A program made the translations under genes and the position numbers. The notes beneath the pieces were generated by a model. It ran no database searches. It was not told the DNA's origin and saw only the letters and a list, made by a program, of their open reading frames with translations. Shown here piece after piece: positions 3,870-19,365 of a stretch of DNA of 19,365 bases. Each line of letters opens with the position of its first letter. The stretch's first letter is position 1. The stretch is from Minisyncoccia bacterium (GTDB taxonomy: Bacteria; Patescibacteriota; Minisyncoccia; SW-4-49-11): positions 1 to 19,365 of the forward strand of contig JBIKVS010000014.1 in NCBI GenBank assembly GCA_044356725.1, read 5' to 3'.

Positions 3870-3902
3870 GTATATTGTATTTTGTAATAATATTAAACTC
3901 AA

Positions 3903-3947
3903 TCCTCCTCCGTCACCTACGGTGCCACCTCCCCCAAGGGAGGACAA
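3903..3947 (-). repeat. Double-hairpin repeat, copy 1
   Basis: Reverse complement TTGTCCTCCCTTGGGGGAGGTGGCACCGTAGGTGACGGAGGAGGA is identical (45/45) to 16708-16752. Confidence 0.92.
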
Positions 3948-10464: not shown

Positions 10465-10496
10465 TTATTTAATTATGAATGGTAAATTATGAATTT

Positions 10497-10516: not shown

Positions 10517-10560
10517 TTGTCCTCCTTTGGAGGAGGTGGCACGGAGTGCCGGTGGTGGAT
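10517..10560 (+). repeat. Double-hairpin repeat, copy 2
   Basis: TTGTCCTCCTTTGGAGGAGGTGGCACGGAGTGCCGGTGGTGGAT, 43/44 identical to the reverse complement of 17378-17421. Confidence 0.92.
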
Positions 10561-10569
10561 GCTTTAAAT

Positions 10570-10590
10570 ATTCCACTCTTGAGGGGTGGA
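10570..10590 (+). repeat. Internally deleted repeat copy (lacks hairpin 2)
   Basis: ATTCCACTCTTGAGGGGTGGA joins hairpin 1 directly to the GGGGTGGA tail. Confidence 0.65.
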
Positions 10591-10641
10591 GTATTTATTA
10601 TAATTATAAATTTTATCAATTTACTTCAAGGTAGTAAAAGC

Positions 10642-10677: not shown

Positions 10678-10739
10678 ATCCAACCCCGCCTTGCAGGCTT
10701 CCCCCTCCCTGCCTACCGCAGGCAGGCAAAGGGGGACAA
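10678..10739 (-). repeat. Double-hairpin repeat, copy 3, carrying a nested 19-bp palindrome (10708-10726)
   Basis: Minus strand TTGTCCCCCTTTG[CCTGCCTGCGGTAGGCAGG]GAGGGGGAAGCCTGCAAGGCGGGGTTGGAT. Confidence 0.8.
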
Positions 10740-12990: not shown

Positions 12991-13143
12991 TGGTATTTTA
13001 TTAAATTTGCAATTTCACCATACCACAAAAACAAGATTTTAGCAAGTTAAGTTTATCGAGATAAAAATAGGTACTTATTATAATTAGGTTATGGATAAGA
13101 AATTTATAATTCACAACTCACCATTCATAATTATCCTCAAACC

Positions 13144-15891: not shown

Positions 15892-16660
15892 AAAAATATC
15901 TTTTGTAATTGTATCCTATAAAAGTCTAAAATTTTTAACAGACTGTGTAAATTCTATCATCCAACATACTTCTGGAGATTATGAAATTGTCATAGTAGAC
16001 AATAACTCAGGTGAAAATTTAGATATAATACAAAACTTATCCACAGAAAAAATTACAATAATTTATTCAGATAAAAATGCAGGATTTGGCTCAGGAGTGA
16101 ATCTAGGAGCTACTAAAGCTACAGGAGATTGGCTATGTATTATTAACCCCGATACTCGCATACAAGGAGATATCCACACATTATCCACAATTGACAAAAC
16201 CACTAAAGTCATAGGCCTAGCTCTAGTGAATCACGAGAAGCAAATTCAAGCTTATCAGTATGGAGACTTCCCTACTCCCAAGAGTATAATCCAAAATACC
16301 GCCAAAAAAATCTGGAAAACTCCCTCAGAGGAAAGTCTTCTGACTGATTGGGTAAGTGGAGGCTCACTTTGTATAGAGACTTCAGTATTCCGAGAGCTTG
16401 GTGGCTTTGATGAGAGATTTTTTATGTACTATGAGGATATAGATTTATGCCGTCGAGTCAGACAAGCAGGACATAATATCGAATGGACACAACAAATCAC
16501 CATCTGGCATTATGAAGGAGGATCCGAGAGTAATATTATCAATACCAAAAAGAGATATTACAAAGCCCAGAGACAATATCTCGTCAAATGGTATGGTAGA
16601 TTTTGGGCTGTTTTGCTGTATCCGTTGCAGAGGTATATGTTGTGGAAGATTAAGTATTAA
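15869..16660 (+). CDS. GT2 family glycosyltransferase (WbbL-like)
   Basis: ISFVIVSY, IVIVDNNS, NAGFGSGVNLG, INPD, DWVSGG, GGFDERFFMYYEDIDLC. Confidence 0.92.
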   Translation: MPSIFKNKKISFVIVSYKSLKFLTDCVNSIIQHTSGDYEIVIVDNNSGENLDIIQNLSTEKITIIYSDKNAGFGSGVNLGATKATGDWLCIINPDTRIQGDIHTLSTIDKTTKVIGLALVNHEKQIQAYQYGDFPTPKSIIQNTAKKIWKTPSEESLLTDWVSGGSLCIETSVFRELGGFDERFFMYYEDIDLCRRVRQAGHNIEWTQQITIWHYEGGSESNIINTKKRYYKAQRQYLVKWYGRFWAVLLYPLQRYMLWKIKY

Positions 16661-16707
16661 TAAAAAAGTCCCGAGCGTTTGCACGGGGATGAGTGTGTGT
16701 TTAAGTT

Positions 16708-16752
16708 TTGTCCTCCCTTGGGGGAGGTGGCACCGTAGGTGACGGAGGAGGA
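16708..16752 (+). repeat. Double-hairpin repeat, copy 4
   Basis: Identical to the reverse complement of 3903-3947. Confidence 0.92.
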
Positions 16753-16759
16753 CAGAGCT

Positions 16760-16783
16760 AAATTCCCCTCTTGATAGGGTGTC
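16760..16783 (+). repeat. Truncated repeat copy of the mod-type variant
   Basis: AAATTCCCCTCTTGATAGGGTGTC compared with AAATTCCCCTCTTGAGGGGTGTC at 18003. Confidence 0.65.
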
Positions 16784-16875
16784 AAAGTAATGATTTGGGA
16801 CAAAAATTGAATACAACTATTGCTAAAATGATTAAAATATGCTAAGGTAAATTGTCCTAATTTCAGGTCTGTTTT

Positions 16876-17289
16876 ATGACCACTCATTCAGAAACTGAGG
16901 CCACAAAGAAGGTAAGAATTTTACTAAACGCACTTTCAGATGCAGGCTGTGCACTGCATTCTGCAGTAGTAGCGTTAAGAGTAAGAATAGGTTATGAAAA
17001 TCTTGACCTAATGGCAGAACATTCAGTAAGAGTCATAGAATCCTCTACTACATTATTTCAAGCATACATTGTCGCAGCAAATGTTTTAAATTCTGATGAA
17101 AAGCTCCAAGATTTAAAAAATATTGTCTTTGAAACAATAACAGGTTTGAATGCTGCAGCAATTTCACTAATAGCCAAAAGACCTACTATTGAATCATTAG
17201 AGGCAGCTTCACATAAGGCTGATATTACTAGTGCAACAGCACATCAGACTAAAGTAAGATTCTCTGATACGATATATAAATACAGTTGA
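16876..17289 (+). CDS. Orphan Ala-rich, probably helical hypothetical protein (137 aa)
   Basis: ATG ORF with an upstream TTGCTA-17-(TGC)TAAGGT promoter candidate (16820-16848) and a downstream terminator. Confidence 0.65.
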   Translation: MTTHSETEATKKVRILLNALSDAGCALHSAVVALRVRIGYENLDLMAEHSVRVIESSTTLFQAYIVAANVLNSDEKLQDLKNIVFETITGLNAAAISLIAKRPTIESLEAASHKADITSATAHQTKVRFSDTIYKYS

Positions 17290-17325
17290 CACAGACTCAT
17301 TTAATTAGATTGTTCCTTCCTCCCC

Positions 17326-17348
17326 CCCTCGCTGAGCGAGGGTTTTTT
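17326..17348 (+). terminator. Intrinsic terminator
   Basis: CCCTCGC-TGA-GCGAGGG followed by T6. Confidence 0.8.
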
Positions 17349-17377
17349 CTTTAAAGATATATTAAAATTTACACTCT

Positions 17378-17421
17378 ATCCACCACCGGCACTTCGTGCC
17401 ACCTCCTCCAAAGGAGGACAA
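17378..17421 (-). repeat. Double-hairpin repeat, copy 5
   Basis: Reverse complement TTGTCCTCCTTTGGAGGAGGTGGCACGAAGTGCCGGTGGTGGAT, 1 mismatch to 10517-10560. Confidence 0.92.
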
Positions 17422-17569
17422 GTAATTATCTTATATTCTATGCAAAGCTTTAATTTCTTGACTTTTTATCTCGTAATTTGTCTACGATCATCTAATCGAG
17501 TACATACTCTGTATTTTTATAAGATTAAAGGGTATAATATAAGATATATAGAATAATAAATTATAATAT

Positions 17570-19336
17570 ATGCCAGGAATTAATTTTAGGTCAATTATAT
17601 TATCAATATTGGAGGCGGATGAGAGAATTTGGTTTCAAAATGAAGAAGGAGAGAAGGAATTAAATCAAACTTTGCTTTTGGATTTGGTAGAAAAGATTGA
17701 TGATAAGATTATTAATTTATTATTACAAGAGGAGGCTTTGAGAGAGAAGTTTTTTGCTAAAATTAGTCCAGATACTACTGAGAAGCATTCTACTTATGTC
17801 TTCAAGATGAATGACTTTAGATTCTTTATGGAGGAGAATAAAATAGATAATTCTTATACAGCTTATAAAAACAGAATTGGACTAACAGATGGGAAAAAAT
17901 TCCTCAAAGATAGTAATGATATAATACTAAATTGGCCGTATAAAGATTGTATTTTGGAAGGTGGGCAAAGTAATGAAGAAGGCTCTGATACTTATTTTGA
18001 GAAAATTCCCCTCTTGAGGGGTGTCGACAAAGTCGACGGGGTGGATTATTCTTATATCCAAAAACAAGCTAAAAGAAAAGAGATATTTTTTAATTCCGTT
18101 CTTGCTCCTGATGAAATTGATAGATTATTAGACCCCAAGGCTTTAGTGAATTGGAAAAGGTTTACAAAAGATGGTCAAATTCCCCTCTTGAGGGGTGTCG
18201 ACAAAGTCGACGGGGTGGATGCTCTCAAAAGAGATAAAAATGGGACTATTGCTGAGAATATGATTATCAAAGGTAATAATCTCTTAGCTATGCATAGTCT
18301 CAAGAAGCAATTTACAGGTAAAGTGAAGCTTATCTATATTGACCCGCCTTATAATACTGGGAATGATGGGTTTAAGTATAATGATAATTTTAATCATTCC
18401 ACTTGGCTGACTTTTATGAAAAATAGATTAGAAGTAGCAAGGGAGTTATTAAGAGAGGATGGGGTAATTTTTGTGAGTTGTGATGATAATGAACAAGGCT
18501 ATCTAAAAGTTTTAATGGATGAAGTTTTTGGGAGAGAAAACTTTGTAAATAATATTATTTGGCATAAAAAAAGAGGTAAAGATAATAGTGCAAAATATTT
18601 TAGTATCACACATGAAAATTTAATTGTATTTGGAAAACAGAAGAAAAATTTAAAAATACTAAGAAATGAATTAGATGAATCAACAAAAAAAGCATATAAG
18701 AATCAAGACGATGATCCTCGAGGAGAGTACCGTATATTAGGTATTTGGTCTAGGCAACAAGGAGGTTCTGAATTCGAATATACAACTAATAAAGGTAATT
18801 TTTACTCTAAAAGATTATGGCTTGTAAATAAAGCTACAATGAAAAAGTTAGATGATGACAATAGATTAATTGAAAATGAAGACAGATTATATTACAAAAA
18901 GTTTTTATCAGAAAACACTGGAAGTATTCCAGAAACAATTTGGAAAGACACCTCAAATAATGCAAATGCAAAAGATGAAATTAAAAATCTATTTGGTGAT
19001 GCAGTTTTTGTCACACCCAAACCAGAACCTTTATTGGAAAGAATAATTCAAATATCCACTCAACCTGGCGACATTGTCCTAGATTATCATCTCGGATCTG
19101 GCACAACTGCCGCCGTAGCTCATAAAATGGGGCGGCAATATATTGGGATTGAGCAGATGGATTATGTGGAAACTATTGCGGTGGAGCGACTCAAAAAAGT
19201 AATAGGACAATCCACCTCCCCCGCTAAAGCGGGTACTCCTCAAGAGGAGAATTCTAGGAAATTAACAGCAAAAGAAAGGCAAGGTTTGCAAGAGATTTTG
19301 GAGAAAATAAAAAATTCTAATAATAGTTTGGTGTAA
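17570..19336 (+). CDS. mod: Type III restriction-modification adenine methyltransferase (Mod, beta class) with in-frame repeat insertions and an atypical C-terminus
   Basis: N-terminal type III region (NSYTAYKNRIGL, WPYKDCILEGGQ, EIFFNSVLAPDEIDRLL), IIKGNNL, motif IV DPPY, a variable TRD, TPKPEPLLERII and motif I DYHLGSGTT. Confidence 0.9.
   Translation: MPGINFRSIILSILEADERIWFQNEEGEKELNQTLLLDLVEKIDDKIINLLLQEEALREKFFAKISPDTTEKHSTYVFKMNDFRFFMEENKIDNSYTAYKNRIGLTDGKKFLKDSNDIILNWPYKDCILEGGQSNEEGSDTYFEKIPLLRGVDKVDGVDYSYIQKQAKRKEIFFNSVLAPDEIDRLLDPKALVNWKRFTKDGQIPLLRGVDKVDGVDALKRDKNGTIAENMIIKGNNLLAMHSLKKQFTGKVKLIYIDPPYNTGNDGFKYNDNFNHSTWLTFMKNRLEVARELLREDGVIFVSCDDNEQGYLKVLMDEVFGRENFVNNIIWHKKRGKDNSAKYFSITHENLIVFGKQKKNLKILRNELDESTKKAYKNQDDDPRGEYRILGIWSRQQGGSEFEYTTNKGNFYSKRLWLVNKATMKKLDDDNRLIENEDRLYYKKFLSENTGSIPETIWKDTSNNANAKDEIKNLFGDAVFVTPKPEPLLERIIQISTQPGDIVLDYHLGSGTTAAVAHKMGRQYIGIEQMDYVETIAVERLKKVIGQSTSPAKAGTPQEENSRKLTAKERQGLQEILEKIKNSNNSLV
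18003..18046 (+). repeat. Double-hairpin repeat, copy 6 (in-frame in mod)
   Basis: AAATTCCCCTCTTGAGGGGTGTCGACAAAGTCGACGGGGTGGAT, encoding IPLLRGVDKVDGVD. Confidence 0.95.
18177..18220 (+). repeat. Double-hairpin repeat, copy 7 (in-frame in mod)
   Basis: 44/44 identical to 18003-18046, 174 bp downstream, encoding the same peptide. Confidence 0.95.
19210..19253 (-). repeat. Double-hairpin repeat, copy 8 (in-frame in mod, reverse orientation)
   Basis: Reverse complement AATTCTCCTCTTGAGGAGTACCCGCTTTAGCGGGGGAGGTGGAT, read in mod as STSPAKAGTPQEEN. Confidence 0.85.
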
Positions 19337-19340
19337 AGAT

Positions 19341-19365
19341 ATGACTAAAAAAAGTGAAATCCAAT
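19341..19365 (+). CDS. Possible start of the next gene (MTKKSEIQ...), cut off by the window end
   Basis: ATG 4 nt after the mod stop codon, only 8 codons visible. Confidence 0.35.

Follow-up and report, generated by a model that had tools for sequence, protein, structure and literature searches.

Two identical repeats that lie in frame in a type III methyltransferase gene (mod) of a Minisyncoccia bacterium are probably tolerated end-pieces of a DUF559 nuclease cassette in loops of a restriction-modification (R-M) protein, rather than an on/off switch. The DNA that we analyzed (the window; 19,365 bp) is the entire contig C16 of an 897-kb genome in 20 contigs that is 99% complete by markers. 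Its DNA is present in lake metagenomes, and the closest named mod locus is that of Candidatus Paceibacterota locus L001. A first-pass annotation, made from the sequence of the window alone, had interpreted the repeats as mobile palindromes that write peptide loops into a defence enzyme and that might recombine to delete the segment between them. That interpretation is partly supported. It missed that the repeat is, as judged from sequence comparisons, the terminal inverted repeat of cassettes that encode DUF559 (Vsr-fold) nucleases.

The open reading frame that carries the repeats is a type III R-M Mod with predicted methylation activity (Table 1). It is a beta-class N6 methyltransferase with a DPPY motif, a specificity domain (TRD) and a type III N-terminal domain, and its predicted fold matches 6k0w and the EcoP15I Mod (4zcf). 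The C-terminal ~130 aa that are usual in Mod are absent from this ORF. The mod backbone had a pN/pS of 0.14-0.27 relative to four relatives (a crude count), and purifying selection has therefore acted on the gene with the repeats. In two RNA runs, only 0.15 and 0.05 of the words were found. A Res gene follows mod in L001, L002 and L014. In this genome Res lies at the beginning of contig C10, and there the L001 alignment resumes past a gap of ~1.2-1.3 kb. The two contigs, C16 and C10, add up to 116,715 bp, which is 1,201 bp less than a single contig of P0364, and they appear to join across this gap, since the sum fits the gap seen relative to L001.

Table 1. Features of the window, with positions counted from its first nucleotide.
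Feature	Position	Strand	Remarks
N-terminal 588 aa of a type III Mod, with N-terminal domain, catalytic domain and TRD	17570..19336	+	PF12564 and PF01555; PADLOC MTase_III 7e-162; alignment
Site-1 repeat, family A, forward	18002..18046	+	Codons 145-159, KIPLLRGVDKVDGVD; tip of beta-hairpin 139-147/160-168
Conserved segment separating the two copies (strand 160-168, helix 180-186, hairpin 197-204)	18047..18175	+	No homologue examined lacks it
Site-2 repeat, family A, forward	18176..18220	+	Codons 203-217; left junction KDG-[EQ]IPL as in the full in-frame DUF559 cassette of P0040, P0125, P0378
Site-3 repeat, family A variant	19210..19256	-	Reads STSPAKAGTPQEEN; scored at about 19212-19254 (15.6 bits); frame ends shortly downstream
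Start of inserted gene (MTKKSEIQ), cut by contig end	19341..19365	+	Counterpart in L001 has P22_AR_N and RhuM domains and lies between two mod parts
Family-B copy, intergenic, then partial family-A copy (16760-16784)	16708..16754	+	
Copy with family-B head, intergenic, upstream of mod	17378..17421	-	
Family-B copy, intergenic	3902..3947	-	
Family-B-type copy and partial family-A copy, intergenic	10518..10591	+	
Family-C copy, intergenic	10679..10739	-	

The two repeats in mod are the same variant, found nowhere else in the genome. The 44-bp copies (18003-18046 and 18177-18220) are 100% identical, are spaced 174 bp apart in the same frame of the 588-aa ORF, and have unlike flanking sequences, all as first annotated. 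The site-1 copy translates as KIPLLRGVDKVDGVD and the site-2 copy as QIPLLRGVDKVDGVD. This exact variant occurs twice in the 897-kb genome, even with 12 substitutions allowed (without gaps); a weaker stem resembling it is found once, on contig C20. The repeat folds as two hairpins (5-6 bp) followed by a G-rich tail, and none of 200 shuffled sequences folded as well on either strand.

The peptides encoded by the two copies add length to loops of Mod. They had been annotated as 14-aa peptides that should be insertions or replacements in loops. Neither is a clean 14-aa insertion: each copy takes the place of a shorter sequence and lengthens the protein by a net 10 aa. Where the empty allele of L002 has nine codons at site 1, the window has nineteen, and this junction can be read as the insertion of 45 nt between E and Y combined with the loss of 15 nt. 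The site-2 loop grew from seven residues to seventeen. We used a structure model based on 150 sequences (mean pLDDT 82.8), in which the three repeats of Mod fall on the stretches of low confidence (152-155, 209-214 and 551-565). An earlier model (72 sequences, pLDDT 69.5) left residues 91-193 unresolved and was superseded. The lengths of both loops vary among homologues without any repeat, and homologues outside the lineage do not have the peptide, which would be expected in repeat-free homologues if it were an ordinary part of the protein. The alignment, the allele comparison and the structure model support the reading that a palindromic repeat of a mobile type adds peptide loops to Mod.

The two-copy arrangement is not a misassembly, because both copies are also present in P0364 (a separate database entry with 4 contigs, the longest 117,916 bp) and in the divergent, 70%-identical P0004, and because contigs of three runs tile the left flank, the middle and the right flank at even depth. 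One of these runs is possibly the source sample, and none of their contigs extends across both copies. At position 18446 of the window, X1 and X5 contigs and P0364 (L293I) carry another base, which is either a strain difference or an assembly error.

The repeats in mod belong to a family that is abundant in this genome. We used three subfamily profiles (A, B and C) and counted a copy at 18 bits or more, which gave 138 scored copies in the genome (A 47, B 78, C 13). The window holds eight full-length copies, three of them in mod, as had been annotated, plus two partial ones. The sequence of the second hairpin varies while its pairing is kept: the mean stem was 4.4 bp over 25 variants and 2.6 bp with the arms shuffled, and 4.4 bp was reached in 0 of 2,000 shuffles. 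The family-A pattern was found in all 11 other genomes of the genus and in one of five genomes of other genera in the family.

Copies within long coding sequences were confined to R-M genes, as the first-pass annotation had suspected from the window. Five of the 138 copies were inside ORFs of at least 200 aa (~102 expected by length), and all five of these genome-wide were in R-M genes: two in the focal Mod and single copies in Res (C10), HsdS (C5) and another type III Mod (C15). The site-3 copy of mod scores below the 18-bit threshold; with it counted in, the coding copies number six. By a generous hand list, R-M-type genes make up at most 5.5% of the coding DNA in ORFs of at least 200 aa. 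With the focal gene left out, three of three coding copies were in R-M genes, with a probability by chance near 1.5e-4. There were 16 further copies in ORFs of 103-183 aa that resemble read-through of repeat clusters and are candidate ORFs only, and a looser regex matched at the 5' end of a 436-aa ORF that is not of the R-M type. The restriction of coding copies to R-M genes also points to loops in Mod, Res and HsdS where inserts of 10 to ~170 aa are tolerated.

The same repeats bracket DUF559 nuclease genes in related genomes. DUF559 was present in 14 of the 41 genomes searched and in 5 of the 11 other genomes of the genus, and the nuclease is about 130-160 aa. Comparison of the loci shows a free-standing cassette in the same-genus genomes: each of the nine DUF559 loci was next to at least one scored repeat, and at five of the nine a converging pair flanked the gene. 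Repeat subfamilies A, B and C each pair with their own DUF559 sequence group. At the five A-type loci the N-terminus of the nuclease is encoded by the left A repeat, and the left end at L090 is identical in sequence to family-A copies at C2, C5 and C18. In the genome under study, neither an intact DUF559 nor a Y1 transposase (PF01797) was found at threshold. The genome keeps a decayed B-type DUF559 gene with stops (C9:53747-54057), directly after its repeat. We also noted that C5:977-1338 is a mosaic of repeats only, and that the same site in a relative (L083:1247-1885) is a DUF559 cassette.

Long proteins that contain this nuclease are mostly R-M proteins. Our survey covered 105 proteins with this nuclease group, all in the range of 459-1462 aa. 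By Pfam, 84 were R-M proteins, 13 were QueA, MiaB or ThrRS, and 8 had no other Pfam domain; of five of the last group tested by PADLOC, one was a type III Mod. The repeat peptide was found on the left in 80 of the 105 hosts, on the right in 83, and on both sides in 68. With the sides swapped the numbers were 9 (left) and 5 (right), and in random windows 1 and 0 of 1,480. These peptide patterns are post hoc, in that they were composed after the rows had been inspected; the first strict regex, which among the 105 hosts matched 13 on the left, 31 on the right and 7 on both sides, was too narrow and was replaced. In many HsdS hosts the cassette is at the site where the HsdS of this genome has a solo copy. 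One protein (P0376) has two DUF559 domains, and two HsdR proteins (P0435 and P0451) each have DUF559 and a GIY-YIG domain.

Alleles with the left end only, the right end only, and the full cassette all occur at the site-2 loop in the alignment of Mod homologues. The sequence anatomy of the repeats and the distribution of the alleles could be read directly from these alignments. In other taxa, the whole DUF559 cassette is in frame at site 2 of Mod (P0040, P0125 and P0378), and part of it is found there in P0135 and P0377. The nuclease of P0040 is 50% identical to the A-type DUF559 of the genus at L090. The window has the left end only, with the junction KDG-QIPL (KDG-EIPL in the cassette). L001 and P0005 have a solo right end (reverse), and its junction, PLKRGIDGT, is the one found in P0125 and P0378. 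None of the close MPGINFRS-type alleles has the ancestral site-2 peptide.

The repeat at site 1 was probably copied locally from the one at site 2. This is the simplest reading because the stem variant at site 2 is common to the distant L014 lineage and the forward site-1 copy is restricted to P0001/P0364, P0004 and P0011. None of the homologues showed a full cassette at site 1. This site has a reverse A repeat in L014, a heptamer-type run in P0006, other palindromes in P0022 and L135, and a tandem array in L079. A variant residue is the same at both copies: V/V in the window (P0001) and G/G in P0004. It is G in all 12 site-2 forward alleles matched outside the P0001 cluster, and V at site 1 of P0011. 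This pattern suggests exchange between the two copies. The same G-to-T change occurs in 2 other of the 25 family variants, so parallel mutation could mimic conversion.

According to the alignments, recombination reshuffles loop alleles and specificity domains. Each of the four pairings of site 1 (filled or empty) with site 2 (forward repeat or heptamer) was found (P0001, P0011, P0002 and P0008). Two pairs of homologues (P0005/P0369 and P0007/P0371) have TRDs of equal length with the same start yet differ in the state of the loops. In strain X18, site 1 is empty and a 606-base stretch of the TRD is replaced by 636 other bases. A fourth loop, at Mod residues 63-75 near the N-terminus, has a repeat (reverse, doubled or forward) in P0004, P0007, L014 and P0125 and is empty here.

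The third copy in mod marks a split of the gene, which was overlooked in the first-pass annotation. Site 3 has an in-frame, back-to-back pair of repeats in L002 and L014, is empty in L111, and has a solo reverse copy in L135. What remains of the pair in the window and in L001 is the reverse half, followed soon by a stop and then by a P22_AR_N-RhuM gene. In L001 (6621-8271), the C-terminal part of Mod is a separate ORF with a new leader, and the inserted gene is PDC-S05-like by PADLOC. A two-chain Mod may be functional, because the same shortened end recurs in at least nine homologues (P0002, P0004-P0010 and P0014) with different TRDs. Between mod and res, a Bro-N gene (C10:217-640; L001:8288-8674) is shortened by an inverted family-B pair; it is whole in L002 (2982-3899).

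Based on these comparisons, we believe with some confidence that the repeats are solo end-pieces of a selfish DUF559 cassette that persist as near-neutral passengers in R-M loops. In an ancestor, a DUF559 cassette would have entered site 2 of Mod and collapsed to one end. The remaining end would then have been copied 174 bp upstream into the equally tolerant hairpin tip at site 1, with recent copying or gene conversion maintaining the identity of the copies. The nuclease would recognize the hairpins and mobilize them. The repeats would persist by being in frame, in loops that accept nearly any peptide, and homologous recombination between mod alleles would shuffle them together with the TRDs. 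Collapse of the cassette, local copying, and a role of the nuclease in mobility are the steps that we infer. Several observations count against this reading. This genome, which has no intact DUF559, nonetheless has 29 matches to the family-A pattern and is tied for second among 12 genomes of the genus; no insertion or excision event was observed; and 13 of the 105 cassette hosts are products of housekeeping genes (QueA, MiaB, ThrRS).

The main competing explanation, which we consider unlikely but worth keeping in view, is that solo repeats move by themselves, like REPs or REPINs, through an enzyme acting in trans (DUF559 or an unrelated transposase). They would insert anywhere and survive only at permissive loops of dispensable R-M genes, and the cassette alleles would be separate insertions into the same loop. 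That 133 of the 138 copies are outside long ORFs is consistent with this, as is the site-1 junction, with its insertion between two codons. Unrelated-looking repeats occupy site 1 in P0006, P0022, L135 and L079, and therefore this loop is a general landing pad. Genomes of the genus with A-type DUF559 have 13-45 copies and those without have 3-29 (p=0.014, with kin that are not independent). However, independent movement of solo repeats does not predict the junction peptides that the solo left and right alleles share with the full cassette at site 2, and a Y1 transposase was not found in this genome. Homing-like drive seems improbable. In that case the nuclease would cut empty R-M alleles at conserved loops and repair would copy the cassette in, as an in-frame, non-splicing cassette instead of an intron or intein; solo ends would be immune alleles left after decay of the nuclease. 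The same Mod site is filled in distant taxa (Cloacimonetes P0125, Chitinophagaceae P0377 and this lineage), the close MPGINFRS-type alleles all lack the ancestral site-2 peptide, and EDxHD homing endonucleases use the Vsr fold (PMC3239194). A single target sequence, though, does not explain a cassette found in many unrelated genes and in intergenic DNA, and the nuclease, at about 130-160 aa, has no evident long DNA-binding domain.

A deletion switch is very improbable. The first-pass annotation had proposed that recombination between the direct copies would remove 58 aa in frame, which would turn Mod off or alter it. The copies are indeed perfect 44-bp direct repeats in one frame, the concerted V/V versus G/G residues suggest sequence exchange between them, and mod has no tandem-repeat tract, as the annotation had stated. 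However, the 58-aa block was kept in 325 of 325 homologues with both flanks (of 375 stored proteins; four that the regex missed contain the block on inspection). None of the six members of the cluster has the deletion, and three of these are fragments that start beyond the block. The depth of contigs in the middle relative to the flank was 0.87, 0.98 and 1.03 in three runs, and four runs had no 174-bp joint; rare variants could escape detection in these data because contigs built from short words collapse the 44-bp repeat. The deletion would be one-way, removing a structure that is conserved and folded in the model, with no reversion, and most close relatives have one forward copy or none. A phasevarion is likewise not indicated, with no simple-sequence tract in 17300-19365, in mod or upstream, and no deletion variant among homologues or run contigs. 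The switch would have been the most striking of the claims if true; it was not borne out here.

If the repeats are end-pieces of a DUF559 cassette, then DUF559 genes with double-hairpin inverted ends might represent an undescribed class of mobile element, a proposal that we make tentatively and for which we see nearly even chances. Such an element would be the nuclease counterpart of REP-RAYT, with matched subfamilies of enzyme and repeat; it would invade proteins in frame without splicing and return to the same R-M loops across phyla. The mod gene would be an allelic record of its life cycle: the full cassette, left end, right end, locally copied end, and back-to-back pair of ends. To our knowledge, the enzyme that mobilizes palindromes carried in frame within proteins is mostly not known. 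A repeat family, its matching nuclease group, and filled and empty alleles are in hand here, so that the mover of orphan repeats is directly testable.

In-frame palindromes are already known (RPE and REP), and a link between DUF559 cassettes and repeats was described in no paper listed by our search, which covered mainly open-access papers. The repeat works like Rickettsia palindromic elements (RPEs) and intragenic REPs and is laid out like BoxC, but fails the defining sequence tests of each. RPEs are dispersed stem-loops 105-146 bp long that are mostly intergenic and are also found in frame in many conserved genes (PMC2229807). Like them, our repeat is a dispersed palindrome, mostly intergenic, with in-frame protein fusions that are apparently tolerated. 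It differs in being ~45 bp with two short hairpins instead of a 105-146 bp stem-loop with terminal inverted repeats, in having coding copies in R-M genes only (in this genome), and in having a candidate partner nuclease. With BoxC/PIT/TM_ECO it shares a C-rich arm, a short loop, a G-rich arm and a second G-rich tail, as well as inverted pairs (PMC4666352). The TM_ECO consensus, however, had 0 matches in this genome, and a variable second hairpin replaces its 3-nt loop. According to that main text, which does not mention DUF559, the E. coli BoxC/TM_ECO copies are always intergenic and have no association with mobile elements.

The arrangement around a dedicated gene resembles that of REP and RAYT. 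In both cases small hairpins occur genome-wide, with inverted copies around the gene and with intragenic copies that sometimes occur two to an ORF (PMC3733652). In relatives, the bracketed gene encodes the Vsr-fold nuclease DUF559 instead of a Y1 tyrosine transposase. CGTC REPs have an unpaired CGTC tag beside the stem; the reverse strand of our repeat has a CGTC run, which is paired within the stem in the window copies. Unlike CGTC REPs, which have a single stem of 8-9 bp with a 4-5-nt loop, the repeat has two hairpins, with stems that average 4.4 bp (25 variants). No dedicated transposase is reported for CGTC REPs in that paper, and its table of intragenic REPs could include R-M cases (PMC3733652). 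Movement of TRDs in type III mod genes by recombination in conserved motifs (PMC3467074) resembles the swapping of TRDs in X18 and the homologues; here, repeat-filled loop alleles are reassorted as well. The EDxHD homing endonuclease I-Bth0305I likewise has a Vsr-type fold on selfish DNA within a host gene (PMC3239194). I-Bth0305I is in a self-splicing intron and has one target, whereas the cassette is read through in frame, has hairpin ends, and is found in many hosts. Rfam gave 0 matches in the window at the gathering threshold, and relaxed searching of 16500-19365 gave sub-threshold matches only. Among candidates considered, whalefall-1 (RF01762; PMC2864571) was rejected: a family-B copy scored 18.4 bits against a threshold of 37, and the mod copies were unmatched.

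A second type of repeat is often found next to the hairpin repeats. AT-rich, heptamer-type runs occur 26 times in the genome and 0 times in three shuffles, and they often adjoin hairpin repeats (e.g., window 10470-10495 and 13108-13133). Such a run occupies Mod sites 1 and 2 in other alleles (P0006, P0008 and L111). We found no partner gene for it. We rejected, for this family, the idea that such runs (peptide MNYEL) form the end of a cassette with a four-helix-bundle (PF05635) gene: a PF05635 gene was present in 3 of 17 genomes, and heptamer-type runs were at none of the four such loci. Upstream of mod, between repeat copies, a 137-aa ORF (16876-17289) had no Pfam match; it is also upstream of mod in L002 and is not at that position in L001 or L014. 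In L004, L025 and L031, near-identical mod genes occur as tandem pairs within one locus.
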